Origin: an uncultured Acidobacteriota bacterium
GTDB lineage: Bacteria; Acidobacteriota; Thermoanaerobaculia; Multivoradales; UBA5704
Reading direction: 5' to 3'
NCBI GenBank assembly: GCA_963732005.1
Contig: CAVSXT010000005.1
Coordinates: forward strand, 2,638,631 to 2,702,630
Length of the DNA: 64,000 bases
Position numbers and translations under genes: made by a program. Each line of letters begins with the position of its first letter. The first letter of the stretch is position 1. Positions 1,768 through 56,945 of this stretch are shown here, piece by piece. A model generated the notes under the pieces. It ran no database searches and had not been told where the DNA came from. It worked only from the letters and a program-made list of their open reading frames with translations.

Positions 1768-2268
1768 TCAGCGGCCTAACCCGAGTCCACGGTCCAGGAC
1801 TCTCTCGACCGCTCGGATGGCGAGCTCGACGCGGAAGGGAAGCTCGCGGGAGAGCGTCGAGACGGCCAGCCTGGCCGCTTCCGGGCCGATCTCGCGGACG
1901 ATGGCCTCGATCGCCTTCTCGGGTCCCTTCATCGCCTGCTCCACTCGCTGCAAGGTCCTGTTGAGGTGTTGTAGCTGGTCGCGCAGTTTGGGCAGGCTTT
2001 CGCCGATGGCGTTTGCGGGCGCCTGCGCCTGGGCGGCGGCGCGCTCTGAACCGTGATAGCGATCGAGGGCGGAGCGTAGGGTGGGCACGGCGCCGAGGGC
2101 CTCCTGCTGGGTTCGATCGGGCCGGCGAAGGAGGGTCTCCGGGCGACCGTGGATCTGGCCATAGACGGCGGCGTGCCCGGCTCTGAGTCGCTCGGACGCA
2201 TGCGGGTCGGCGGTCAGGCGCTCGACCACCTGGGCCGGCTGGGTGTAGACGCGCCCGGCCGCCCACAC
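1768..2268 (-). CDS. probable frameshifted C-terminal continuation of the relaxase (would give a ~1000-aa TraA-like protein)
   Basis: This frame is open and natural-looking from ~2400 down to 1768. The relaxase frame turns into low-complexity junk after ...DYAAAAIERQA. A G/C homopolymer lies at ~2391-2403. Confidence 0.5.
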   Translation of the reverse strand: MWAAGRVYTQPAQVVERLTADPHASERLRAGHAAVYGQIHGRPETLLRRPDRTQQEALGAVPTLRSALDRYHGSERAAAQAQAPANAIGESLPKLRDQLQHLNRTLQRVEQAMKGPEKAIEAIVREIGPEAARLAVSTLSRELPFRVELAIRAVERVLDRGLGLGR

Positions 2269-4775
2269 CAGGTTGGCGCGATCGGCGGCGAGGTCGCTTG
2301 CGGCGGTGACGGCATGCTCGACGGTGGACAGGTCCCCGCGGAGGTGCTGGATCTCATGGCGTAGGTTACTGGCCTGGTTCTCGAGCGGCGCGAGGGGGCG
2401 GCCTGGCGCTCGATGGCAGCGGCGGCGTAGTCGCGGGCGAGGTCGTCCTTGGACGGGGCGCGGGAGAGGGCGCGGTCGAGGTGCTCTCGGTCGGCGAAGG
2501 TCTGGCGGTCGGTGTAGACCTGGATGTCCTGGCGATGGCGGGTGAGTGCGACGTAGGAGGCGTTGCGGTTCATCAGCGGGTCGGCGAGGACGTAGGTGCG
2601 GTCTACGGTGGCGCCCTGGCTCTTGTGGATGGTGACCGCATAGCCATGGGCGATCTGGTCGTACTGGCCGGGATGGAAGGCCACCCGGCGGCCGTCGTCG
2701 AGGCGGGCGACGAAGCGGTCGGGCGAGACGCGCTCTAGGGTTCCCAGGGTGCCATTCTTGACGCCGACGGCCTGGCCCCTGGCGCGGCCGAGGTTGGTCA
2801 CCTCGCGGCCCTGGTGGTCGTTCTTGAGAAAGACCAGGCGGTCGCCGGCGGCGTACTCGGCGCCGGCGACGGTGATGCCGGCGCGGAGCTCGCCCGCGGC
2901 CAGGCGCTGGTCGCGGATGCCGGTGTTGAGGCGGGCGACGTCGTCGTTGCGGTAGGCGAGCACCAGCTGGCCGCGGCCGGGGTCGGCGGCGCGATCGGCA
3001 GCGTAGCGGGCCAGGAGGTCGGCGCGGGCGGCGTCGCGGGTGTCGGCGACGTGGAGGCGGCCGGCCTGCTGGTAGGCGTCGAGGGCCGGGGCAACGCGGC
3101 CACCGGCGAGGTCCGCGGACGCCTCGCGCTGCCAGGGCTCGGCCTGGCGGCGGATGGTGTCGAGGCGGGCCGAGGGGTGCTGCTCGAGCAGGCCGCGAAA
3201 GGCGTCGCCGGGTCCGATCGGCTTGAGCTGGTCGGGATCGCCGACCAGGATGACCTTGGCGCGCTGGCTGGCCGCATGGTCGAGCACGCGGGAGAGCTGG
3301 CGGGCATCCACCATGCCGGCCTCGTCGACGACCAGCACGCAGCGACGGTCCAGGAAATCGCCGTGCTTCCAGGAGTACTCCCAGCTGTGGAGGGTGCGGG
3401 AGCGGATGCCGGTCTCGCGCTGCAGGCTATCGGCGGCCTTGCCGGCCAGGGCGCCGCCGAGCACGTCGTAGCCAGCCTCGCGGTAGGCGTCGGCGATGGT
3501 GGCGGCGGTGGTGGTCTTGCCGGCGCCGGCGCGGCCGACGACGAGGGCGAGGTCGTCGCGGGTGGTGGCGGCAAGGACGGCGTCGCGCTGCTCGTCGGAG
3601 AGCCGCGGCGCGCGGTCGAGGGCACGCTGGACGTCGGCGGGATCGAGGCAGAGGTCCCGGCGGGCGGCGAGCTCGCCGGCGGCGTGGAAGAGACGCGCCT
3701 CGTCGCGCAAGTAGTCGGTGGAAGCGTAGTGGTTCACGCCGCGGGCGTCCTTGCCGACGCTGGCGGTCAGGTGGCGGTCGAGCGCGCGCTCGGCAAGGGC
3801 GTGGCTGTCGGGCTCATGGAACGCAGCGCGCCGGATGTCGGCCTTGGTGAAGGTGGCGCGGGTCGCGGTGAGGCGATCGATCAGCGCCGCGGCGCGCTCG
3901 CCGCGGGTGGCGCCGGCCAGGGGCTCGCGCTCGCGGGCGCCCTCCTGGAGCTGGACCTGGGGCGGCTCGGGATGGAGCTCGCGGTGCTGGCGGAAGGTCT
4001 CGCCGAAGCGGGCGGCGAGCTTCGGGCCGCTCAGGCTGCGGTCGACCTTGGAAAGTGAGATCCGGCGGCTGCCGTCGGTGACGACCAGGCCGGAGCCGCG
4101 CTCGGCCGGTTCGAGGCGGTAGCCGAGCCCGGCGAGCGCGGCTTCGAGCTCCACCCAGCTGGTGGCCTGGGCGAAGACGTGGCCGGCCTCGTCACGGACG
4201 CGGTCGGCGAAGGGCTGGACGCCAGTGCGCATGGCCTCGCGGACGGTGCCAGCGCCGAGGTCGGGGGGTGCCTGCTCGCGGCCGGTGCGGCTGAGGTCGT
4301 ACTCGACCTCGAGGGCGGGGATGGCCTCGTGGGCATGCACCATGTCGCGGAAGGGCCGCCAGGCGCGGCCGTCGTCGCCGATGCGGTTGATGACGATGTG
4401 GATGTGCTGGTTGTCGGTGTCGCGGTGGGCGATGAGCACGGCCTGGTGGTCGGCGAGCCCCATGCGGCCGAGGACGCGGCTGGCGACGTCCTCCCACTGC
4501 TGGCGGGTGAGGTGCTCGCCGGCGGCCAGGCTCAGGCCGAAGTGGTAGACGGGCTCCTCGACCCTGGGGTTGTCGCTGGCGGTGTAGCGCATGAGCTGGG
4601 CAGCCTCGGCGGGGTTGTCGGTGTCGAGGTTGCGGGTGCTGGACCAGGCGACCCGTGCGAGGTCGGGGCGGTCGCGGTGGCCCTGCTGGAGGTAGCGGAC
4701 GAGTCCGGCGAAGCTGCGGCCAAGCCCGGTTCTGGCGCCGGTGCCGGACTTGCGGCCGCCCTTGAAGGTGGTCAT
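2214..4775 (-). CDS. conjugative relaxase: MobA/VirD2-type relaxase domain fused to a TraA/RecD-like (P-loop, UvrD_C-like) helicase
   Basis: N-terminus carries the HxH motif HIHIVINRI. Walker A GRAGAGKTTT and VLVVDEAGMV are present. C-terminal helicase motif VTIHKSQGATVDRTYV. The last ~60 aa of the track ORF are compositionally unnatural, consistent with a frameshift near 2385-2405. Confidence 0.85.
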   Translation of the reverse strand: MTTFKGGRKSGTGARTGLGRSFAGLVRYLQQGHRDRPDLARVAWSSTRNLDTDNPAEAAQLMRYTASDNPRVEEPVYHFGLSLAAGEHLTRQQWEDVASRVLGRMGLADHQAVLIAHRDTDNQHIHIVINRIGDDGRAWRPFRDMVHAHEAIPALEVEYDLSRTGREQAPPDLGAGTVREAMRTGVQPFADRVRDEAGHVFAQATSWVELEAALAGLGYRLEPAERGSGLVVTDGSRRISLSKVDRSLSGPKLAARFGETFRQHRELHPEPPQVQLQEGAREREPLAGATRGERAAALIDRLTATRATFTKADIRRAAFHEPDSHALAERALDRHLTASVGKDARGVNHYASTDYLRDEARLFHAAGELAARRDLCLDPADVQRALDRAPRLSDEQRDAVLAATTRDDLALVVGRAGAGKTTTAATIADAYREAGYDVLGGALAGKAADSLQRETGIRSRTLHSWEYSWKHGDFLDRRCVLVVDEAGMVDARQLSRVLDHAASQRAKVILVGDPDQLKPIGPGDAFRGLLEQHPSARLDTIRRQAEPWQREASADLAGGRVAPALDAYQQAGRLHVADTRDAARADLLARYAADRAADPGRGQLVLAYRNDDVARLNTGIRDQRLAAGELRAGITVAGAEYAAGDRLVFLKNDHQGREVTNLGRARGQAVGVKNGTLGTLERVSPDRFVARLDDGRRVAFHPGQYDQIAHGYAVTIHKSQGATVDRTYVLADPLMNRNASYVALTRHRQDIQVYTDRQTFADREHLDRALSRAPSKDDLARDYAAAAIERQAAPSRRSRTRPVTYAMRSSTSAGTCPPSSMPSPPQATSPPIAPTWCGRPGASTPSRPRWSSA

Positions 4776-5314
4776 CCGCGGGGCTCGTCCTGGAGGGCGC
4801 GGCGGACGGCGCGCACCTCGGCCTGGACGCTCTGGACGGCGCCAAGCAGGGCGGCCGACAGCAGGGTGCCGGAGTGGGCGAGCTTGACGAGCTGGTTGAG
4901 GTTGTTGCCGGCCCTGGCGAGCTGGACGATGGCAGCGCGGGCGAGGGGCCAGCGCGCAGTCGGCGGCCTGCCGCGTACGAGGTGGCGCAGGTAGGTACCA
5001 ACGGTGACGCCGGCGCCCTTGGCGCGGGCTTCGAGGTCAAAGTACTGGCTCGGGGTGAGCCGGGCACCCACGATGCACGACAGGGGCTCGGGCTCGGCGG
5101 CCCCACCTGCCGGGTCTCCCGCGGCGGGGGCGCAGGGCAACGCCCCGGCGGTGGCGAGGGGCGCGCCGGCAGGCGCGTCGCCGGCGGCGAGCCGATCAAG
5201 GACGGTGCGGCGGCACCAGGCGGCGGGCGCCAGCCCGGCGGCCCGCGCCGCGGCGGCCAGACGCGCATGCTCCTCGGGGGTGAGCCGGAAGGCGACGAGG
5301 TGGGACCGGCTCAT
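4772..5314 (-). CDS. mobC: MobC-family mobilisation (relaxosome accessory) protein
   Basis: Motif ...QLARAGNNLNQLVKLAHSG is the MobC signature. ATG at 5312-5314. The stop overlaps the relaxase start, giving a mobC-relaxase operon. Confidence 0.75.
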   Translation of the reverse strand: MSRSHLVAFRLTPEEHARLAAAARAAGLAPAAWCRRTVLDRLAAGDAPAGAPLATAGALPCAPAAGDPAGGAAEPEPLSCIVGARLTPSQYFDLEARAKGAGVTVGTYLRHLVRGRPPTARWPLARAAIVQLARAGNNLNQLVKLAHSGTLLSAALLGAVQSVQAEVRAVRRALQDEPRG

Positions 5315-5924: not shown

Positions 5925-5975
5925 GACATCCTCATATGACCATCATATCATGATATAGACCATGAATAGTGGGTC
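5925..5975. promoter_or_regulatory. AT-rich divergent intergenic island with a 12-bp perfect palindrome ATATCATGATAT and GACCAT repeats; candidate oriT/nic or operator-promoter
   Basis: The only markedly AT-rich stretch in the mob/xis-primase region. It sits between the divergent mobC-relaxase and xis-primase operons. Confidence 0.35.
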
Positions 5976-6076
5976 ACAGTGGAGTGCAACGTGCGGTGGG
6001 AACGCCTGCCAGGGCCTCCATTGACCCCTTCAACCCGGGCCGGCTCGCCCGGCCGTACGACTGCGAGGTGATCGTG

Positions 6077-6281
6077 ATGTCCGTGCTGCTCAACACCCGG
6101 CAAGCCGCCGAACGCTGCAACCTGTCGGCGCACACCCTGGAGAAGTACCGGGTCACCGGTGGCGGACCGCCCTTCATCCGGCTGGGCAGGGCGGTCCGCT
6201 ACCAGCTCGAAGAACCTGGAAGCGTGGATCGCGGCCCACCGGCGGCGGAGCACCTCCGACGAGCTGGACGCTCGCGGTTGA
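6077..6281 (+). CDS. AlpA/Xis-like HTH excisionase/transcriptional regulator (apparent +1 frameshift near 6213)
   Basis: MSVLLNTRQAAERCNLSAHTLEKYRVTGGGPPFIRLGRAVRYQLEE, followed in the +1 frame by ...LEAWIAAHRRRSTSDELDARG*. This is the typical AlpA C-terminus. The track fuses this gene to the primase as one 719-aa ORF. Confidence 0.55.
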
Positions 6282-6298
6282 GCTGGACGCTGCCGGCG

Positions 6299-8128
6299 AT
6301 GTCCGACGACGGCGCCCAGCTGGCGGCGATCGAACGCGCCCTCGCGGCGAGGCAGGCTCGCCGCGAGGGGCGCGAGCTGCGGTTCCTGTGCCCGGCGCAC
6401 GAGGACCACCGCCCCTCGGCGCGCTGGAACCACGAGAAGCGGACATGGGTCTGCGACGTGTGCCGGACGGGTGGTGGCTGGCGCGATCTCTCGGCGCGGC
6501 TGGGCCTCGAGCTGCCGGCCGGCGGCGGCGAGCCGCTCGCCGAGGTCGAGGCGGTCTACGACTACCGCGACGGCGACGGCCGCCTGCTGTTCCAGGTGCT
6601 GCGCAAGCGGGGCAAGCAGTTCCCCTGCCGGCGGCCGCTGCCGGGCGGCGGCTGGGCCTGGAACCTCGAGGGCATTGAGCGGGTGCTCTACCGGCTGCCG
6701 GAGACGGTGGTGGCGGTGGCGGCCGGCGAGACGGTGTTCCTGGTCGAAGGGGAGAAGGACGCCGACCGCCTGGCGGCCCTGGGCCTGGCCGCCACCACCA
6801 ACCCCGGCGGCGCCAAGAAGTGGCGGGCGGCCTACGGCGCGGCGCTGCGCGGCGCCCGAGTGGTGATCCTGCCGGACAACGACCTGGCGGGCCGGGAGCG
6901 TGCCGGCACGGTCGCCAGGAGCCTGACGACGATGCGCGGTGGCGCCGCGGCGGAGGTGGGGATGCTCGAGCTGGCGGGTCTGCCCGAGAAGGGCGACGTG
7001 TCGGACTGGATCGCGGAGCGGGAGCGGGCGGGACGGCCGGCGGCGGAGATCCGCCGCGAGCTCGGGGAGCTGGCGGCCGCGGCGCCCACGGTGTTGCCGG
7101 CGGACCTCTCGCCGGCGGGATCCCCGGCGGGGCGTCGGTCGCGTGTCCGCCGCGCTTCGGATGTGCCGCCGCAGGCGGTGGTCTTCCTGTGGCAGCCCTA
7201 CATCGCGTGCGGCAAGCTGACGCTGCTCGAGGGCGATCCCGGGCAGGGCAAGAGCTGGATCGCCGCGGCGCTGGCCACCGCGGGCTCGCGCGGCCAGGGC
7301 CTGCCCGGCGCGGCGCCGTTTGCGCCCTTCCGGACGCTGATCTTCACCGCCGAGGACGGCCTGGGCGACACGCTGCGCCCGCGGCTCGACCTGCTGGGGG
7401 CCGACTGCGACGCGGTGTTCCTGCACGACCAGCCGCTCGACCTTGCCCAGGCCGACGACTTTGCCGAGATCGAGCAGGCGCTGGCCGAGCACCGGCCGCG
7501 CCTGGTCATCCTGGACCCGATCGTGGCCTATCTCGGCGCGAAGACCGACGCCTATCGCGCCAACGAGGTGCGGGCGATCCTCGCCCCGCTGGCGCGGCTC
7601 GCCGACCGCCACGGCTGCGCGGTGCTCGCCGTGCGCCACCTCAACAAGTCGCGGGGGAGCCGCAGCATCTACGCCGGCCAGGGCTCGATCGACTTCACCG
7701 CCGCGGCGCGCTCGGTGCTGCTGGCCGGCTGCGGCGCCGATGACGACGCCGAGCGGGCGCTGGTGCACATCAAGTCCAATCTCGCCGCGGTCGGGCCGAC
7801 CCTGGCCTATGCCATCGACGAGCAGGGCTTCCGCTGGGCCGGGGCGAGCCCGTTGCGGGCCAGCGACCTGCTGGCGCCGGAGGCCACCGGCAACGACCTG
7901 TCCTCGCTCGACGAGGCGCGGGCCTTCCTGCGCAGCCTGCTCGGCGCCGGCCCGGTGAGCACCAACGAGATCTGGGCCGCCGCCCGCCAGGCGGGGATCG
8001 CCGAGCACACCCTGCGCCGCGCCAAGCAGCTCGAGGGCATCGTTGCCCGCCGCCAGGGCTACGGGACGGGCGGCAGCTGGCGCTGGTCGCTGGACGGACC
8101 GCCGGCCGCGCCGGCGGGGGAGGGGTGA
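6299..8128 (+). CDS. phage/plasmid-type bifunctional primase-helicase (CHC2-like zinc finger, Toprim, AAA_25/RepA-like P-loop)
   Basis: Zinc-finger motif LRFLCPAHEDH...WVCDVCRTGGG. Toprim motif FLVEGEKDADRL...VILPDNDLAGRE. Walker A EGDPGQGKSW, plus LVILDPIVAY and AVRHLNKS. Confidence 0.8.
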   Translation: MSDDGAQLAAIERALAARQARREGRELRFLCPAHEDHRPSARWNHEKRTWVCDVCRTGGGWRDLSARLGLELPAGGGEPLAEVEAVYDYRDGDGRLLFQVLRKRGKQFPCRRPLPGGGWAWNLEGIERVLYRLPETVVAVAAGETVFLVEGEKDADRLAALGLAATTNPGGAKKWRAAYGAALRGARVVILPDNDLAGRERAGTVARSLTTMRGGAAAEVGMLELAGLPEKGDVSDWIAERERAGRPAAEIRRELGELAAAAPTVLPADLSPAGSPAGRRSRVRRASDVPPQAVVFLWQPYIACGKLTLLEGDPGQGKSWIAAALATAGSRGQGLPGAAPFAPFRTLIFTAEDGLGDTLRPRLDLLGADCDAVFLHDQPLDLAQADDFAEIEQALAEHRPRLVILDPIVAYLGAKTDAYRANEVRAILAPLARLADRHGCAVLAVRHLNKSRGSRSIYAGQGSIDFTAAARSVLLAGCGADDDAERALVHIKSNLAAVGPTLAYAIDEQGFRWAGASPLRASDLLAPEATGNDLSSLDEARAFLRSLLGAGPVSTNEIWAAARQAGIAEHTLRRAKQLEGIVARRQGYGTGGSWRWSLDGPPAAPAGEG

Positions 8129-11310: not shown

Positions 11311-11988
11311 TCACCAGCCCCCTCGCGCGTAAAGCGACTCCCACTGGCCGGCGGCGCCGAGCACCAGGTGGTCGAGGAGGTCGACGCCAAGGAGCGCCGC
11401 GGCGTCCGCCAGCTGGTGGGTGAAGCTCAGATCCTCCGGCCTGGGCGTCGGACCGCCACTGGGGCGGGTGTGGAAGACCACGAAGCCGCTGGCGCCGCGG
11501 AGCAGGCATTGTTTGAGGATCTCCCGTGGTTCGACCGCGGTGCGGTGGAGAGTGCCGCGGTAGATCTCCTGCTCGCCGAGGAGACGGTGACGGGTGTCGA
11601 GGAACAGGGCGCCCAGCACCTCCTGGTCGCGCTGCCGGTAGCGGAGCGCGAGGAAGCGGGCGACCTCGTCGGGGCGGGTGAGGGGGCGGCGGACCGGGAT
11701 GCGCTGGCGCGCCAGGCGGCAGGCGATCTCGAGGGCCGCGAGCAGCGCCGACGCCTGGGTGTCGCGAAGGCCCCGGAGCCGCAGCACCGCTCGCGACGTT
11801 TCCGGGAGTGCGGCGAGCCCGCCCTCGTCGGTCAGGAGCTTGCGGGCGAGCCGGAGGGATGTGCGGTGGGCGCGGCCGCCCGCGAGCAGCACGCCGAGCA
11901 CTTCGGCATCGGTGATCGCGTGCAGGTGGCGCTCGAAGCGGTCGGTCGCGGCGCTGACTTGGGCGGCGACGCCGGCGTCACACTTCAT
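11311..11988 (-). CDS. RadC-like JAB/MPN-domain protein (common mobile-element cargo)
   Basis: JAB-like motif VVFHTRPSGGPTPRPEDLSFTHQL with the RadC-type C-terminus. Confidence 0.75.
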   Translation of the reverse strand: MKCDAGVAAQVSAATDRFERHLHAITDAEVLGVLLAGGRAHRTSLRLARKLLTDEGGLAALPETSRAVLRLRGLRDTQASALLAALEIACRLARQRIPVRRPLTRPDEVARFLALRYRQRDQEVLGALFLDTRHRLLGEQEIYRGTLHRTAVEPREILKQCLLRGASGFVVFHTRPSGGPTPRPEDLSFTHQLADAAALLGVDLLDHLVLGAAGQWESLYARGGW

Positions 11989-12319
11989 GGAACGTCACCC
12001 CATAGGGTGCCTCCGGTACGGCTTGGATGCGGACGAACGCCTGGCGGCGCGACTCGGGCAGGTCGGACGCCGCCTCTTCGAGGCGGGTCCACAGGGCCAG
12101 CCAGCGCCCGCCCGCGAACAGCACGACCAGGCCGGCCTCGTCGGGCGAATAGTCGGGATACCAGTCGCCGCGCGCGATTTCGGCGGGCGGGGCCGGCGCG
12201 GTGAAGTGGACGGCGACGACGATGTCGTAAAGGGCGCGGCGGGTGGCTTCGGTGTAGACCTCGAGGTCGAGGCCGGGGGGCAGGGACGCGGGGTTGGTAG
12301 AATCCTGCTCGCTGCGCAT
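11978..12319 (-). CDS. hypothetical protein (113 aa) upstream of the RadC-like gene
   Basis: ATG at 12317-12319. Natural composition. Overlaps the RadC-like gene start by 11 nt. Confidence 0.4.
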   Translation of the reverse strand: MRSEQDSTNPASLPPGLDLEVYTEATRRALYDIVVAVHFTAPAPPAEIARGDWYPDYSPDEAGLVVLFAGGRWLALWTRLEEAASDLPESRRQAFVRIQAVPEAPYGVTFHEV

Positions 12320-20606: not shown

Positions 20607-22533
20607 TCTAGCCCATCTTTGACAGTATGCCGCCCGATTACCGCCATCTTCGCGTCGTAAGTCATTGAAAAATCGAGGAGGGAGTGCTCGGCGCCATCTC
20701 AATCCTGGTGCCAAGAATGTGTCATAATGACGCCTTGCATAGAGCGCTCACTCGGATATAATCATGGTGACAAGGAGAGGTCACCATGTTCTTCCGCCAG
20801 AAAAAAGCCGGGGGCCACGTGTACCTCCAGATCGTTGAAAACCGCTGGGAAGACGGCCAAGCCCGCCAGCGGGTCCTGGCGACTCTCGGCCGCCTCGATC
20901 AGCTCACCTCCTCCGGGGAGTTGGCGGCGCTGCTCGCATCGGGCGCTCGCTTTACCGATTCTTTCACTGTCTTGACCGAACATCGCCGCGGCGACTTGGC
21001 GGCGGTGAGCACCCGGCGTATCGGCGCGCCTCTGATCTTTGAGCGCTTATGGCAGGAGACCAGTTGCGCCCAGGTGCTGAGTGCGGAATTGGCCGAGCGT
21101 CAGTTCGAGTTCCCGGTGGAACGGGCGATCTTCCTTGAAGTGCTCCACCGCTTGGTAGCACCCGGCTCAGACCGTGCAGCCTACGCCTGGCGAGAAGCTT
21201 ATGGCATCGCCGGTGCCGAAGCCCTCGACCTCCATCACGCCTACCGCGCCATGGCGTGGTTGGGCGAGCCGACCGGCGAGACAGGCGGGCGGACGATCAA
21301 GGATCGCATCGAAGAGCAACTCTTTACCCGTCGGCGGGACTTGTTTTCTTCGCTGCAATTGGTCTTCTTCGACACCACCTCTCTCTATTTCGAGGGCGCC
21401 GGGGGTGACAGCTTGGGCCAGTATGGTCATAGCAAGGACCACCGACCGGATCTGCGACAGATGGTAGTCGGTGTGGTGTTGGATCAAGAGGGCTGGCCGA
21501 TCTGCTGTGAGCTGTGGCCAGGCAACACTACCGATGTCGGAACGCTGGTGCCCGTCATCGAGAGGCTGAGTCAACGCTTCGGCATCCAGCGGGTCTGTAT
21601 CGTCGCCGACCGCGGCATGATCGCGGCGGCAACGCTTCAGGCCCTGGACCAAAAGGGCTGGCCTTACATTGTCGGCGCGCGGCTGCGCAGCAGCCGGGAG
21701 GTGCGCCACGAGGTGCTGGGCCGCCAGGGCCGGTTCGCGAAAGTCTTCGGCCCGCGCCAGATTGCCAAGGACCCGTCGCCGCTGTCGGTCAAGGAGGTCT
21801 GGGTCGATGATCGCCGCTACATCGTGTGCTTCAATGAAGAACAAGCGCGCAAAGACGCTGCCGACCGGCAAGCAATTCTTGCGGCGCTTGCCGATCGGCT
21901 GCCGCAAGGCGCCAAGTCGCTGATCGGCAACCAGGGTTTCCGCCGCTATGTCACGACACAAGGCGATGGCTTTCGGATTGATCCGGCGCGAGTGGCAGCC
22001 GAGGAGCGCTACGACGGCAAGTGGGTGTTGAGGACCAACACCGACTATCAGGCCGCCGAGGTCGCCTTAGCGTACAAGCAGCTCTGGATGGTGGAGGATC
22101 TGTTCCGGTCGATGAAATCGCTGCTTGCCACGCGGCCGATTTATCACCGCCGCGACGCCACGATCCGCGGTCATGTGTTCTGCTCATTCCTGGCGCTGCT
22201 TCTGCGAACAGAACTGGAGAATCGACTCGCAGCCAAGGGTCATGTGGCAGTGGAGTGGGGCCAGGTACTGCGCGATCTCGACCGACTGGAGGAGGTAGAA
22301 CTCGAGAAGGATGGTAAGCGGCTGATGCTGCGCACCGACGCGGTGGGAGTGGCGGGCAGGGTCTTCCAGGCTGTGGGAGTGGCGCTCCCGCCGACCCTAC
22401 GCCAAGTGGCCTGATCGCGCACAGCCCAGATCCTCTCGGAACCGGAACTCCTGGTGCCAAGGTCTCTCACCGAGCTCTCAACCCATTTATTTGCAGAGAC
22501 TTGACATTGGGCACTGTCAAAGATGGGTCTAGC
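20607..22533 (+). mobile_element. IS1634-family insertion sequence (~1.93 kb) with imperfect ~25-bp terminal inverted repeats
   Basis: Left end tctagcccatctttgacagtatgcc (20607-20631). Right end ggcactgtcaaagatgggtctagc (22509-22533). These are reverse complements with 2-3 mismatches. A single transposase ORF lies between them. Confidence 0.8.
20786..22414 (+). CDS. IS1634-family (IS4-like DDE) transposase
   Basis: MFFRQKKAGGHVYLQIVENRWEDGQARQRVLATLGRLD N-terminus is characteristic of IS1634. 542 aa, intact. Confidence 0.85.
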   Translation: MFFRQKKAGGHVYLQIVENRWEDGQARQRVLATLGRLDQLTSSGELAALLASGARFTDSFTVLTEHRRGDLAAVSTRRIGAPLIFERLWQETSCAQVLSAELAERQFEFPVERAIFLEVLHRLVAPGSDRAAYAWREAYGIAGAEALDLHHAYRAMAWLGEPTGETGGRTIKDRIEEQLFTRRRDLFSSLQLVFFDTTSLYFEGAGGDSLGQYGHSKDHRPDLRQMVVGVVLDQEGWPICCELWPGNTTDVGTLVPVIERLSQRFGIQRVCIVADRGMIAAATLQALDQKGWPYIVGARLRSSREVRHEVLGRQGRFAKVFGPRQIAKDPSPLSVKEVWVDDRRYIVCFNEEQARKDAADRQAILAALADRLPQGAKSLIGNQGFRRYVTTQGDGFRIDPARVAAEERYDGKWVLRTNTDYQAAEVALAYKQLWMVEDLFRSMKSLLATRPIYHRRDATIRGHVFCSFLALLLRTELENRLAAKGHVAVEWGQVLRDLDRLEEVELEKDGKRLMLRTDAVGVAGRVFQAVGVALPPTLRQVA

Positions 22534-24656: not shown

Positions 24657-47720
<23,064 letters not shown>

Positions 47721-48015: not shown

Positions 48016-48825
48016 ATGACAACCTCTTTCACCGACGACACCACGCACCTCGCCGAGACCTACGACCGCATCAGCGACTTTCAGTTCGAAAACGGCAAGC
48101 GCCTCGTCGAGCGCCTGAACCTCGAGGCGGGCGACCGCGTCCTCGACGTGGGCTGCGGCACCGGACGACTCGCTCGCTGGATCGCCGAGCGCGTCAGCCC
48201 CACGGGCAGCGTCGTCGGCATCGACCCGGTCGCCGAGCGCATCGCCATCGCGAACGCCGGTGCCGGCGGCATCACCTTCGCGGTGGGTCAGGCCGAGGAC
48301 CTGGGCGCGTTCGCCGCCGAGAGCTTCGACGCGGTGAGCATGTCGGCGGTCTTTCACTGGGTGGCCGACAAACCGCGGGCGCTCGCCGAGATCCGCCGCG
48401 TCCTGCGCCCCGGCGGCCGCCTCGGGGTGACCACGTTTCCGGGCGAGCTGAGCGGCGCGGGTACCGTGCCCGCGGTCCTGGCCCCCGTGCTCGCACGTTC
48501 GCCCTACGCGGAGCGGGTGGACCGGTCGGGCCCCGGCGCGCTGAGCCGGGACTACACCACCACGCGATTGATCTCGATGGTGATGGAGAGTGGCCTCCAG
48601 CTCGCCGAGCTGCAGGTCGCGGCGCGCTCCCGGCATTACGCCACGGGAGCGGACGTGGTCGCGTTCATCGAGTCGAGCGCGTTCGGCAACCTCACCAAAG
48701 CCGTCCCTGAGGAGCTGCGCGAGGCGCTGCGCCTCGACCTGGCCGCCGCGTTCGAAGCGCGCAAGGGTCCCGAGGGCATCGCGCTTCGGGACTGGGGAAC
48801 GCTCTTCGTGGCGAAGCGGCCCTGA
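48016..48825 (+). CDS. class I SAM-dependent methyltransferase (269 aa)
   Basis: Motif I VLDVGCGTGRLARWIAE and motif II FDAVSMSAVFHW. ATG at 48016. Transcribed divergently from the NRPS. Confidence 0.8.
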   Translation: MTTSFTDDTTHLAETYDRISDFQFENGKRLVERLNLEAGDRVLDVGCGTGRLARWIAERVSPTGSVVGIDPVAERIAIANAGAGGITFAVGQAEDLGAFAAESFDAVSMSAVFHWVADKPRALAEIRRVLRPGGRLGVTTFPGELSGAGTVPAVLAPVLARSPYAERVDRSGPGALSRDYTTTRLISMVMESGLQLAELQVAARSRHYATGADVVAFIESSAFGNLTKAVPEELREALRLDLAAAFEARKGPEGIALRDWGTLFVAKRP

Positions 48826-48853
48826 GGGATTTCGCGGTACTTACCTGCCGGCT

Positions 48854-49015
48854 TCACCCTCGGCGCGGAATCGGCGGCGCGCACTCCGGGCAGGTGTAAA
48901 AAGCCGGAATCGAGTAGTGCCCACCCGGCGCATCTGCCAACTGGCCGTGCTGCAGCGCGGCCAGCGTCTCGGCGCGCAGCGAGAGCTTCTTCACCTGCGA
49001 GGCATTCTTCTTCAT
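48854..49015 (-). CDS. small Cys-containing peptide P3 with a double-Gly leader-like N-terminus (MKKNASQVKKLSLRAETLAALQHGQLADAPGG / HYSIPAFYTCPECAPPIPRRG)
   Basis: RBS AGGAGA ahead of ATG 49013-49015. Leader resembles P1 and P2. Confidence 0.45.
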   Translation of the reverse strand: MKKNASQVKKLSLRAETLAALQHGQLADAPGGHYSIPAFYTCPECAPPIPRRG

Positions 49016-49194
49016 GGTCCTGTCTCCTATGGTTGTCCGCCCCTGCAAGAGAGAGTGTGACCTGAAGCCGAAATGAGGCCACCTTGCGCGTACAGGTGCT
49101 GCGGGGAAGGACGGTGCCTGTCCGACTGGACAGCCGGCGCTTGCGGTGGCGTAGCGAAAGGTTTTTTGGGATACGTGCCTTGAACGAGGTCCTC

Positions 49195-49564
49195 ATGACA
49201 CGGACGCGAGTGCCGCCGGTGCTGGTCACCGGAGCGACCGGCCGGGTTGGGCGCGTCGTGGTCGATCTGCTGATCGACGCGGGCGTGCCGGTCCGCGCCC
49301 TCACGCATCGCTCCGCGGCGGCGGCGACGCTGGCGGATCCAATTCGAGGAGCTGTCGCCGGACGAGTTTCGCGGCGAGACGGCGGGAAGCTGGCCGCGCC
49401 CGGCCGTGGACATGCTGCTCGCCGCGTGGGGCGCAACGATTGGCAGGCCGGCGTTCATCACCTCGACGGTGTTCGACCTCCTCGGATCGGCGCCACGATC
49501 GTTTCGCCAGTGGGCCGCCGATCACGCCACCGCGTTCAGGGAAGGTCCAACCCCATCGAGTTGA
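49195..49564 (+). pseudogene. NmrA-like NAD(P)-binding protein with an internal deletion and frameshift
   Basis: N-terminus MTRTRVPPVLVTGATGRVGRVVVDLLIDAGVPVRALT. After ~45 aa the reading jumps (other frame) to the typical NmrA C-terminus ...PRSFRQWAADHATAFREGP*. Confidence 0.5.
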
Positions 49565-49690
49565 CCTTCGCCTGCGCTCGGTCACGAAATCAGTGTAGCG
49601 CAGACCACGCTTCAAGGCTCCAGCGGTGGAGCGGTCAGGAGGCGACCGCGGCGCGGCGGACGCAACCGCGGTTGCGGCGGCGCCTGGGGA

Positions 49691-50926
49691 TCAGCGACGG
49701 GAGGCGGCCACCGATTCGAGCTTGGTGAGGCGCTCGGCGAGCGCGACGATCGTGCTGTTCTGGCTGGCGATCGTGCTCGCCAGGCCGTCGATCGTGCCCT
49801 GCAAGGCGCCGATCTCGGTCGCCTGCCGCGCGATCGTGGCGTGCTGCTGCTGCACCTCGCCGAGGAGCATGGCGTTGACGAAGTGGTAGCGGACGGTGAG
49901 CGGCTTGCCGTCGTCGCCGTATTCGACCAGGCCGGGATCGACGGCGGCGACCTCCTCGGCGATCAAGCCGTACTGCAGGATGCGCTGGCCGTCGTCATAT
50001 TGCGGCTGGTAGTGGAAGGTGACGGGGCGAAGCCGCATCAGCTTGTCGCCGGCGGCGCCGAGATCCGCGACGTCCTCCTTGAAGCGCAGCGATGAGGTCG
50101 CGGTTCCGAGCTTGCCGGAGCTGCTCACGTAGACCGGGATGCCGGAGGAGGCGGTGGCCCCATAGATGCCGGCGACGTAGGCCTGGGTCTGGGCGCCGGA
50201 CGAGCCGATCCGCGTGACGCCGACGTCGCCGGCCACGCCGGTGTTGGACAACGTGATGTTGTTGCTTTCGCTGGCCGTGTAGGAGGCACCGGCCAGCAGG
50301 CCCACCGCCACGTTGGAAGAGCCGCTCACCACGTGCATCAGGGCGCCGGGGCCCACGGCGGTGTTGTACTGGCCGGTGGCGTTGGCGTAGAGGCCGTACA
50401 TCCCCAGGGCGACGTTGTAGGTCCCGGTGGTGTTGCTGAGCAGGGCCTGGTAGCCGGTCGCGGTGTTGTAACCGCCGGTGGTGTTGCCGAAGAGGGCCTG
50501 AAAACCGGTCCCGGTGTTGTAGGGGCCGGACGTGTTGTGGTACAGCGACTCATAGCCCAGAGCCGTGTTGCCGTCGGCGGTGCTGAAGAGCAGCGCGGTG
50601 GAACCAACGGCGACGTTGTTGCTCCCGGTGGTGTTGAGCTCGAGCGCCTCCGTGCCCATGGCCACGTTCTCGTTGCCCGTGGTGTTCTGGTCCATGGCGG
50701 AATCGCCGAACCCGGAGTTGGCGCCACCCGAGACGTTCAAGGCGAGGACGTTATACCCGAAGGCGACGTTGCTCAGCCCGTAACCGCCGTTGGCGAAGAC
50801 GGGGTCGCTGGCGCAGGTGTTCGGTGGGATGTTGGCGCAGTAGCCGCCGGCGTGAAGCGGCATGCTCCTCGCCAGCATGCCCGCGGCGAGGAAGAGACAA
50901 GAGACTCCTGCAGCGCACCTCTTCAT
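49691..50926 (-). CDS. secreted repeat protein with C-terminal Peptidase_S74 (intramolecular chaperone of endosialidase/tail-fibre) domain
   Basis: Signal peptide MKRCAAGVSCLFLAAGMLA. Degenerate NT(x)G...YxAL head-like repeats. C-terminal SSLRFKEDVADLG...VTFHYQ...YGLIAEEVAAVDPGLVEY matches the S74 chaperone domain. Confidence 0.7.
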   Translation of the reverse strand: MKRCAAGVSCLFLAAGMLARSMPLHAGGYCANIPPNTCASDPVFANGGYGLSNVAFGYNVLALNVSGGANSGFGDSAMDQNTTGNENVAMGTEALELNTTGSNNVAVGSTALLFSTADGNTALGYESLYHNTSGPYNTGTGFQALFGNTTGGYNTATGYQALLSNTTGTYNVALGMYGLYANATGQYNTAVGPGALMHVVSGSSNVAVGLLAGASYTASESNNITLSNTGVAGDVGVTRIGSSGAQTQAYVAGIYGATASSGIPVYVSSSGKLGTATSSLRFKEDVADLGAAGDKLMRLRPVTFHYQPQYDDGQRILQYGLIAEEVAAVDPGLVEYGDDGKPLTVRYHFVNAMLLGEVQQQHATIARQATEIGALQGTIDGLASTIASQNSTIVALAERLTKLESVAASRR

Positions 50927-51121
50927 GGCAGCTCCTCTGGCCGTACCCGGCCATTCGCAGCAAGCCCGCCGGCGGGCCTGCTGCTGGAGGATGCGCAATG
51001 CCTCGTCGGCAGGGGACAGGCGGTCGGCGTGGTTCCCAGCCGGTGGCGCGGCCGGCCCGCGAGGCAGAGGCTGCCGGCTCACGAAAGCGCTCAGGCAGCG
51101 CTCAGGCAGCGCTCATGGTCG

Positions 51122-53437: not shown

Positions 53438-54560
53438 GTGGCACTGAGTACTATGCCGGCGATGGTGCCGGACCGCTCGGGAGGACTCGTCATCAGCTCG
53501 ACAACACCAGGGGCCCCGGGCTCGATCAAGGTGGTGGTTTGGGACCTCGACAACACGCTGTGGGAAGGGACTCTCCTCGAAGGCGACGCGGTGCGCCTGC
53601 GGCCGGCGGCCGCCGCGGCCCTGCGCACCCTGGACGCCCGCGGCATCCTGCTGTCGATCGCCAGCAAGAACGATCACGACCAGGCGATGGAGAAGCTGCG
53701 CGAGCTCGGCGTCGAGGACTACTTCATCTATCCCCAGATCGGCTGGAACGCCAAGTCCCTGGGGGTCGCGGCCATCGCCAAATCGATCAACGTCGGCCTC
53801 GACGCCATCGCCTTCATCGACGACGATCCTTTCGAGCGCGACGAGGTCGGTCATGCCCTGCCGCAGGTGAGGGTGCTGCCGGCGGCAGCGGTGGCCGAGC
53901 TGCTGGCGATGCCGGAGCTGATGCCGCGCTTCATCACCGACGAGTCGGCGCAGCGGCGGCGCATGTACCAGGCGGACATCGAGCGCAACCGTGCCGAGGA
54001 AGGTTTCCAGGGGCCGCAGGAGGACTTCCTGGCCGCGCTGGGCATGAGGTTCGCCATCCATCCGGCGCGCGAGTCGGACCTGCGGCGCGCCGAGGAGCTG
54101 ACGGTGCGGACCAACCAGCTGAACACCTCGGGCCAGACCTACTCCTACGAGGAGCTGGATGCCTTCCGCCGCTCCGCCGGCCACCTGCTGCTGATCGCCG
54201 GGCTGGAAGACCGCTATGGCGCCTATGGCAAGATCGGCCTGGTGTTGATCGCCAGGCAGGAGCGGCTGTGGACTCTGAAGCTGCTGCTGATGTCCTGCCG
54301 CGTGATCTCGCGGGGCGTCGGCTCGATCCTGATCCTCCACGTCCTGCGCCTGGCTCGAAGCCGCCGGCGTCCGGCTGCAGGCCGAGTTCAAGGCGACCGC
54401 GCGCAACCGCATGATGCTGGTCGCATATAAGTTCGCCGGTTTCCGCGAGGTCGCGCGGCATGGCGAGGTGCAGGTCTTCGAGCACCCGCTCGACCAGGTG
54501 CAGGGGTTCCCGCCCTATGTCCAGGTCGAGCTCGGCTGGGAGCCCCGGCCGGCGAGCTGA
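53438..54560 (+). CDS. FkbH-like glyceryl-ACP synthase (HAD phosphatase/acyltransferase) with an apparent frameshift near 54350
   Basis: HAD motif VVWDLDNTLWEG and IASKNDHD. After ~54350 the conserved C-terminus ...EAAGVRLQAEFKATARNRMMLVAYKFAGF... continues in the +1 frame to the stop at 54558-54560. Confidence 0.75.
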
Positions 54561-54580
54561 GAGCGCGGTATTGGAGGACG

Positions 54581-54620
54581 GGGGAGAACGGGGGAGAACG
54601 GGGGAGAACGGGGGAGGTAC
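54581..54620. repeat. 10-bp tandem repeat GGGGAGAACG x3 (plus degenerate flanks) overlapping the RBS of the next gene
   Basis: Seen directly in the FkbH-FkbK intergenic region. Confidence 0.6.
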
Positions 54621-54624
54621 GCGA

Positions 54625-55506
<882 letters not shown>

Positions 55507-55527
55507 GACCGCCGCCGCGAGCGCGCC

Positions 55528-55776
55528 ATGAACGACGTCCAGAGCCGGCTCAAGGCCTTCCTGTCACGTTTCTTCCGCCAGCACGACCTGCAGCCCGACG
55601 AGGACATCTTCGCGCTCGGGTTCGTCAACTCGCTGCTGGCCATGCAGCTGGTGAACTTCGTCGAAAAGGAGTTCGGCATCACCGTCGAGGACGAGGACCT
55701 CGACCTGGACAACTTCCGCACCCTGGCCGCCATCGACGCGCTGGTCGAGCGCAAGCGCGCCGCCGCCGGCGTCTGA
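55528..55776 (+). CDS. discrete acyl carrier protein (FkbJ-like)
   Basis: 82 aa. LGFVNSLLAMQLV carrier-Ser context. Positioned as in fkbHKJI/zmaNGDE cassettes. Confidence 0.8.
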   Translation: MNDVQSRLKAFLSRFFRQHDLQPDEDIFALGFVNSLLAMQLVNFVEKEFGITVEDEDLDLDNFRTLAAIDALVERKRAAAGV

Positions 55777-55781
55777 CCGCC

Positions 55782-56945
55782 ATGTCCGAGCCGGGCGAAG
55801 CCGGGTTGCGCCTCGAGCTGTCGCCGGCGCAGCGCGAAGCGCGGCGGCGCTGCCGCGCCTTCGTCGCCGAGCACGTGGCGCCGCACGCCGCGAGCTGGGA
55901 CCGCGCGGCGCAGCTGCCGGACGCGGCGATCGCCGAGCTGCGGCGGCACGGCTACCTCGGGGCCCATCTCGCCCGCGAGCTGGGCGGCGGCGGCGTGGAC
56001 CCGGTCACCTACGGCTTGCTCACCGAAGAGATCGGCCGCGGCTGCTCGTCGCTGCGTTCGCTGCTGACCGTGCACGACATGGTGAGCGAGGCCGTCCGGC
56101 GCTGGGGCGGCCCGCGCCTCAAGAGCGAGGTGCTGCCGCGCCTGGCGCGGGCCGAGCAGCTCGCGGCCCTGGCGCTTTCCGAGCCCAACGTCGGCAGCGA
56201 CGCCGCCGGCGTCGAGACCGAGGCGGAGCGCGACGGCGACGCCTGGGTGCTGAGCGGCAACAAGCGCTGGATCACCTTCGGCATGAGCGCCGATCTGTTC
56301 CTGGTCCTGGCCCGCCACGGCGGCCAGGCCGCTGCCTTCCTGGTGCCGGCGGCGGCGCCCGGCCTGACCCGGGAGCCGATCGGCGGGGTGGTCGGCACGC
56401 GCGCGGCGCGCCTTGCCGAGGTGACGCTCGACCGCTGCCGGGTGCCGGCGGATCACCTGCTCGGTCGGGTCGGCTTCGGCCTCTCGCACGTGGCCGCGAC
56501 CGCCCTCGACCTCGGCCGCTACAGCGTCGCCTGGGGAGCGGTGGGGATCGCCCAGGCATGCGTCGACGCCTGTCTCGACTACACCGCGTCGCGCCGCCAG
56601 TTCGGCAAGCCGCTGGCCGGCCACCAGCTGGTGCAGCGCAAGCTGACCGAGATGATCGTCAACACCCGCGCCGCCCGCCTGCTCTGCCTGCAGGCCGGCT
56701 ATCGGCGCACGATCGGCGCGCCCGACGCCGCCGGCGAGACCCTGATCGCCAAGTATTTCGCCTCGCGCGCCGCCACCCGGGCGGCCAACGACGCGGTGCA
56801 GCTGCACGGCGCCAACGGCCTGTCGCAGGACTATCCGGTCGAGCGTTACTGGCGCGACGCCAAGGTCACCGAGATCATCGAAGGCAGCACCCAGATCCAG
56901 CAGATCGCCATCGCCAGCTACCCGCCGGGCGAGATGCTCGGCTAG
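55782..56945 (+). CDS. acyl-CoA dehydrogenase family enzyme (FkbI-like)
   Basis: ACAD motifs: ...ALSEPNVGSDAAG..., ...GNKRWITFG..., ...YFASRAATRAANDAVQLHGANG... 387 aa. Confidence 0.85.
   Translation: MSEPGEAGLRLELSPAQREARRRCRAFVAEHVAPHAASWDRAAQLPDAAIAELRRHGYLGAHLARELGGGGVDPVTYGLLTEEIGRGCSSLRSLLTVHDMVSEAVRRWGGPRLKSEVLPRLARAEQLAALALSEPNVGSDAAGVETEAERDGDAWVLSGNKRWITFGMSADLFLVLARHGGQAAAFLVPAAAPGLTREPIGGVVGTRAARLAEVTLDRCRVPADHLLGRVGFGLSHVAATALDLGRYSVAWGAVGIAQACVDACLDYTASRRQFGKPLAGHQLVQRKLTEMIVNTRAARLLCLQAGYRRTIGAPDAAGETLIAKYFASRAATRAANDAVQLHGANGLSQDYPVERYWRDAKVTEIIEGSTQIQQIAIASYPPGEMLG

Follow-up and report, generated by a model that had tools for sequence, protein, structure and literature searches.

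The fkbH cassette and its neighbouring NRPS

The window analysed here, a 64,000-nucleotide stretch of DNA from an uncultured Acidobacteriota bacterium, contains a gene of the FkbH family that is divided between two reading frames. The 5′ part of fkbH (53462..54356, + strand; codons 1-298, frame 0) holds a HAD-IIIC phosphatase domain with the motif WDLDNTLW and the first half of a GNAT-like domain, including the invariant Cys in MSCRV, and matches TIGR01681 with 59.8 bits. Frame 0 is open from a GTG at 53438 and ends in the TAA at 54428-54430, according to the list of open reading frames and their translations, with the likely start at ATG 53462, in agreement with the orthologue P0001 and the called protein P0121. 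The 3′ part (54358..54560, + strand) lies in the +1 frame, where 67 codons and a TGA encode the conserved AAGVRLQAEF...RNRMM..Y.F.GF segment of the GNAT-like domain. Read from 54351, this frame begins WLEAAGVRLQAEFKATARNRMMLVAYKFAGFREV, ends PAS* and in full gives WLEAAGVRLQAEFKATARNRMMLVAYKFAGFREVARHGEVQVFEHPLDQVQGFPPYVQVELGWEPRPAS. If the sequence is correct, frame 0 continues beyond the shift as an out-of-frame tail (54356..54430, + strand) of 24 unrelated codons followed by TAA, and this tail aligns to no homologue in the homologue alignment. As deposited, the gene is called as two adjacent proteins of 322 aa (P0121) and 49 aa (P0134) on a 2,979,791-bp contig that NCBI and ENA list without annotation, the truncated product comprising 298 native and 24 aberrant residues. 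The original prediction had placed a frameshift within 54330-54370, about 70 codons before the true stop, with frame 0 stopping at 54430 and the +1 frame running from ~54350 to a stop at 54558-54560. The translations agree with both stops, and the shift point falls at 54355-54357, 67 codons ahead of the true stop.

Three intact genes follow on the + strand, encoding a member of the 3-hydroxyacyl-CoA dehydrogenase family (FkbK/BafAI-like; 54625..55506; PF02737, PF00725), a discrete acyl carrier protein (ACP; FkbJ/BafAII-like; 55528..55776; PF00550) and a member of the acyl-CoA dehydrogenase family (FkbI/BafAIII-like; 55782..56945; PF02771, PF02770, PF00441). The first of these is 95.6% identical to its orthologue on the related contig L001 and occupies a single frame. 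FkbH, the ACP and both dehydrogenases are thus co-located (53462-56945), and their order is the same in relatives. Between the stop of fkbH and the GTG of the dehydrogenase, the spacer carries a 10-bp tandem repeat, GGAGAACGGG, in 4.4 copies (54573-54616), which creates several Shine-Dalgarno-like GGAG motifs. This repeat is mostly or wholly absent in relatives, with L001 lacking 21 nt and L007, a second related contig, carrying a larger deletion that spans the spacer.

A class I SAM methyltransferase lies beside the cassette (48016..48825, + strand; PF08241, PF13649) and is syntenic in relatives; judged by its family, it is a candidate O-methyltransferase of the Methyltransf_11/25 kind, not of the FkbG type. 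Adjoining it is a segment of about 2.3 kb (48828-51117) that is absent from L001 and sits between the methyltransferase and an amine oxidase of the cluster. The segment was considered as an IS element, whose presence would point to cluster decay, and this was rejected, since it encodes a 473-aa, tail-fibre/adhesin-like protein (49694-51112, - strand) with 51-nt (17-aa) repeats and a Peptidase_S74 intramolecular-chaperone domain.

The methyltransferase separates the cassette from a divergently transcribed NRPS gene (24657..47720, - strand), an uninterrupted run of about 7,690 codons (one open frame of 7693 codons). Its Pfam domains describe a carrier domain, a condensation (C) domain, repeated A-T-C modules and finally a sulfotransferase and a thioesterase. 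The N-terminus consists of a GTG start and a lone GLDSLS carrier motif, after which the C domain follows, and a run of (Ala-Asn-Pro)n occurs near it, at about 47560-47620. At the other end, Sulfotransfer_3 directly precedes the thioesterase, which resembles the ST-TE off-loading pair of CurM and the olefin synthases, but in a KS-free line. A Pfam search of the window found no KS or AT, and neither an extender-accepting PKS module nor an FkbG-type O-methyltransferase accompanies the cassette. On the far side of the NRPS, positions 1-24600 are mobile-element-like, with a relaxase/TraI-like helicase (2217-5036, - strand), AAA_25 (5966-8125), RadC (11314-11994, - strand) and a DDE transposase (20771-22411). 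G+C content is 0.62-0.67 at 14-24 kb and 0.72-0.75 in the cluster, and together with the mobile-element-like genes this indicates that the NRPS cluster abuts an integrated element.

Comparison with characterised systems places the gene and its cassette among known types. In the methoxymalonyl-ACP route, glyceryl-ACP is formed from 1,3-bisphosphoglycerate, and NAD- and FAD-dependent dehydrogenases convert it to hydroxymalonyl-ACP (PMC3679948). Bafilomycin biosynthesis uses BafAI-AIV, of which the FkbH-like protein has 367 aa and its disruption abolished activity (PMC3679948). The same gene set occurs here, with a 3-hydroxyacyl-CoA dehydrogenase, a discrete ACP and an acyl-CoA dehydrogenase adjoining FkbH. 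Like the FkbH, OzmB, ZmaN and BafAIV loaders, the protein here combines a HAD-IIIC domain with a Cys-bearing GNAT-like domain, scores above the TIGR01686 cutoff and, when repaired, is of similar length (365 aa against the 367 aa of BafAIV). It differs from them in that its gene is split by a +1 frameshift as deposited, its partner is a pure NRPS with no PKS in the window, the methyltransferase is of the Methyltransf_11/25 kind instead of an FkbG-type O-methyltransferase, and the host belongs to the Thermoanaerobaculia (Acidobacteriota) and is neither an actinomycete nor a Bacillus.

Glycerate starters on NRPS lines are also known. Vioprolide and corramycin assembly begins with FkbH-type loading of a glycerate starter, drawn from 1,3-bisphosphoglycerate, on the first NRPS carrier domain (PMC10099666), and in BslA of the suomilide/banyaside lines the loaded glycerate unit is O-methylated and sulfonated (PMC13122637). 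The locus shares with these systems a carrier-then-C NRPS start, an adjacent methyltransferase and a sulfotransferase domain. In those systems, however, FkbH is fused into the loading module, whereas here it is free-standing with its own ACP and two dehydrogenases, and the sulfotransferase stands beside the terminal thioesterase and not in the loading module. The original prediction had called FkbH the loading enzyme of this cluster, a label that is apt because the NRPS opens with a lone carrier domain and then a C domain, and reasonable because FkbH-type loading of glycerate starters onto NRPSs is known.

By analogy with characterised members, FkbH would take a glyceryl unit from 1,3-bisphosphoglycerate, dephosphorylate it with its HAD domain and pass it via the Cys of the GNAT-like domain onto a carrier protein. 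The dehydrogenases encoded next to it may then oxidise the glyceryl unit towards hydroxymalonyl-ACP, and the resulting unit, whether glyceryl, hydroxymalonyl or a methylated form, would prime the neighbouring NRPS, the presumed acceptor of the glycerate-derived unit. We infer this enzymology from the characterised family members.

The +1-frame segment and the extra base

Against TIGR01686, which describes the FkbH domain and has a curated cutoff of 146.65 bits, the frame-0 ORF reaches 253.7 bits and covers only profile positions 3-290 of 323, and when one base is skipped to join the two frames, the score rises to 277.3 bits and the match spans positions 3-320 of 323, so that the truncated ORF and the repaired protein both lie above the cutoff. 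Removal of one base gives a protein of 365 aa, whose alignment to homologues of 345-413 aa contains no gaps. We found 5442 homologues in about 5.8 billion proteins, and the best 120 of the 5442 measure 345-413 aa; the closest among the homologues listed, P0001, is 93% identical and also has 365 aa. When P0001 is compared with the window by tblastn, the match moves from frame 2 (residues 1-300) to frame 3 (residues 299-365, 91% identity). All 16 of the full-length homologues that were aligned cross the junction without a gap (LRLA[Q/R/E/K/S]..AGVRLQAEF), with the junction consensus LRLA-x-AAGVRLQAEFK.T.RNRMM.V.YKFAGF. The HAD DxDxT motif is present as WDLDNTLW, with invariant D28, D30 and T32, and so is the conserved Cys of the C-terminal domain, as the invariant C279 in MSCRV, upstream of the frameshift. 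This Cys is reportedly the acyl-enzyme site in OzmB. As deposited, no single reading frame contains the complete GNAT-like domain, and deletion of one base places it in one frame.

These comparisons bear out the view that the conserved C-terminal GNAT-like part lies in the +1 frame, which had been proposed from the reading of the two frames; the extension of the TIGR01686 match and the GNAT matches of the orthologue model (see below) both support it. An alignment of both frames to homologues, suggested at the same time as a check, gives a continuous junction in all 16 sequences and leaves the frame-0 tail unmatched. The chance that there is no frameshift, with homologues ending near 54430 and a coincidental resemblance in the +1 frame, is practically nil and was ruled out, as the listed homologues of the 5442 are 345-413 aa long and include the +1 segment, the profile reaches 320 instead of 290 only with the frames joined, and the segment is 91% identical to the orthologue by tblastn.

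DNA alignments to relatives assign the +1 frameshift to one extra nucleotide, a G at 54357 (+ strand). The window reads CTGGCTCGAAGCC where relatives read CTGGCGC-AAGCC (alignments to L001, L003, L005 and L007). Compared with seven intact orthologous contigs of 94-97% nucleotide identity, exactly one base is extra. P0001 is encoded on at least six of these contigs (L001-L006), which come from different metagenomes, and a closer relative still, P0124, on the seventh (L007). The T at 54355 adjoins the extra G; relatives carry G there, a difference at a synonymous position. The insertion site is not a homopolymer, with the extra G giving CTCGAAGCC in place of the alternatives CGCAAGCC or CTCGAGCC, and homologues have either Gln or Arg at the codon.

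The lesion is also isolated. In a block-wise alignment to 21 kb of syntenic sequence on L001, the base at 54357 is the sole coding indel with a length that is not a multiple of three. Nine indels in the NRPS gene and several other coding indels in the same alignment are all multiples of three, and the remaining indels that are not multiples of three are all intergenic when their positions are compared with gene coordinates. Across the roughly 19 kb of coding DNA that can be aligned, no second indel breaks a frame, and tblastn finds a frame change in fkbH only, the other 16 of the 17 syntenic genes being intact.

It is extremely improbable that programmed +1 ribosomal frameshifting, or some other form of recoding, yields a full-length FkbH from this sequence. 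An open and conserved +1 frame would be expected under recoding, and is equally explained by the other readings. In contrast, the closest relatives encode FkbH in a single frame, and therefore the shift is not a conserved feature, and the P-site codons CUG and GCU cannot re-pair in the +1 frame. Neither a Shine-Dalgarno-like stimulator upstream nor an in-frame stop at the shift site is present, and a conserved slippery or hungry codon with a stimulator common to orthologues, as in prfB-type systems, is likewise missing. The downstream RNA folds no better than shuffled sequences (z = +0.73), and the lack of a homopolymer at the site speaks against transcriptional slippage. On these grounds programmed recoding was rejected.

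A separate observation concerns a more distant locus (L089, 1890-5419; JGI 3300062568) of 75% identity, where the gene calls divide FkbH into parts of 204 aa and 177 aa that overlap by 4 nt at the boundary between the HAD and GNAT domains. The 177-aa part, with an overlapping upstream gene call before it, recurs in a second sample (L090). The dehydrogenase genes of L089 are also fragmented (174 aa; 234 plus 132 aa), and its FkbH could be naturally split or the product of an error-prone assembly.

Predicted structural consequences of the shift

To see what the shift would remove, we used a model of the orthologue P0001 (93% identical), built from a 41-sequence alignment with a mean pLDDT of 87.1; a sequence search of solved structures returned no FkbH structure and matched the HAD domain of BF1531 alone. 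In the model, the N-terminal half adopts a HAD fold, with Foldseek matches that include the MDP-1 and BF1531 HAD structures, and the C-terminal half a GNAT-like fold, matching many GNAT acetyltransferases with a TMt (TM-score normalised to target) of 0.6-0.75. The shift falls at residues 298-299, close to the end of helix 287-301. Lost beyond this point are strand 304-310, helix 316-324 and strands 328-333, 336-341 and 353-357, a span modelled at pLDDT 86-97 in 10-residue blocks, apart from the last five residues at 53. In essence, about half of the core of the C-terminal GNAT-like domain would disappear, along with the invariant residues R314, N315, R316, M318, Y322, G326 and F327. Cys279 and the HAD motif lie upstream of the shift and are retained. 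From the model, we infer that a chain of 298 native and 24 aberrant residues would fail to form a working transferase domain, and a real frameshift should inactivate the enzyme because about half of the GNAT-like core would be lost.

Assembly error or recent mutation

How old the extra base can be is limited by the segment that follows it. Read in the +1 frame, the window differs from L007 downstream of the shift by six synonymous and no non-synonymous codons over 60 codons, and from L001 by eight synonymous and five non-synonymous codons, with three of the five in the variable last seven residues. Using L001 as the outgroup, the changes on the branch leading to the window (ACC, TAT and CGG) are synonymous in the +1 frame in three of three cases. 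Because only about 24% of the sites in the segment are synonymous (S = 48.3 of 201), this outcome has a probability of about 0.014 under neutrality. The substitution pattern indicates that purifying selection has acted on the out-of-frame segment, read in the +1 frame, until practically the present day, and consequently that the extra base is either unreal or very recent.

We consider it probable that the G at 54357 is spurious and reflects an assembly error. A long-read metagenome consensus error would most likely have inserted it into an fkbH orthologue with no other defect, perhaps where the co-assembled strains carry different codons (CAA for Gln against CGA for Arg), and the organism would then encode a normal 365-aa FkbH. 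Several findings favour this explanation. The lesion is minimal, one base more than in seven intact orthologous contigs, which come from different samples; the sequence downstream of the shift displays no decay; and the rest of the cluster is intact, including the 23-kb NRPS and 16 other syntenic genes. The adjoining T at 54355 and the Gln/Arg variation at the codon fit a consensus error from mixed haplotypes. The source assembly is probably a long-read metagenome-assembled genome (MAG), and most Mb-scale Thermoanaerobaculia/Acidobacteriota contigs in the genome collection belong to Nanopore-only MAGs of the soil survey Microflora Danica (MFD), which links the window to assemblies of this type in a circumstantial manner. 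Microflora Danica assemblies are Nanopore-only with one round of Medaka polishing (PMC12313526), and leftover indels fragment gene calls in bins below 40-fold coverage (PMC9262707). As in such long-read cases, a single-base indel here turns one conserved gene into two adjacent calls (PMC9262707); unlike them, the site is not a homopolymer and the case is the only one in the window.

That difference weighs against an artefact. Nanopore indels concentrate in homopolymers, and the insertion lies outside one. In addition, neither the NRPS frame nor about 19 kb of alignable coding DNA contains another frame-breaking indel, and the assembly is therefore locally accurate, such that one error is not especially expected. 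Protein look-ups and homology searches found no independent assembly of the same strain across the site. The 322-aa product and the 49-aa fragment were found only on the 2.98-Mb contig. In run ERR11718639, a 2.4-kb contig that begins downstream of fkbH encodes the ACP and the acyl-CoA dehydrogenase in identical form, and a search with the C-terminal 140 aa found no near-identical C-terminal fragment, the best matches being 75-82% identical. Among species-representative genomes, the best match reached 78% identity.

Alternatively, the extra base is real, and a +1 frameshift of very recent origin shortens FkbH to 322 aa and inactivates the enzyme, which we regard as quite possible though rather less than likely. 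The NRPS would then be without its glycerate-derived starter, and the cluster would be silenced or make a different product. The deposited sequence does carry the frameshift, in a window otherwise devoid of frame-breaking indels and at a non-homopolymer site. The invariant residues and the four strands and helix that would be lost, modelled at pLDDT 86-97, point to a loss of function, in line with the effect of FkbH disruption on bafilomycin production (PMC3679948). Other local rearrangements relative to relatives, namely the 2.3-kb insertion in the cluster and the nearby mobile-element genes, are also compatible with a genuine mutation. In opposition, there is neither a second lesion nor relaxed selection downstream, and a real event would therefore be extremely young. 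All seven related contigs keep an intact gene, the rest of the cluster here is undamaged, and the allele is carried by one assembly only. The original prediction had offered a sequencing indel or an inactivated loading enzyme, and the evidence leaves both explanations standing.

In summary, the locus combines a known gene family and a known kind of cassette with a single-base frameshift of an ordinary sort, probably the result of an assembly error. For annotation, this means that the deposited gene would appear either as a pair of proteins or as a pseudogene, and a functional loader might be scored as missing from the cluster; in cluster mining, FkbH is best regarded as probably intact. A real mutation would be a routine loss-of-function allele in one strain. 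A genuine frameshift could mean that this soil Thermoanaerobaculia strain was caught just after the knockout of its starter enzyme, with the NRPS cluster otherwise intact, a scenario that we hold only tentatively; if true, nature would here have preserved the moment at which the cluster began to decay, or at which its product changed to one that lacks the glycerate-derived cap. The cluster itself is of more interest than the frameshift, with a free-standing FkbH cassette, a carrier-first NRPS and a sulfotransferase-thioesterase end in an uncultured member of the Acidobacteriota.
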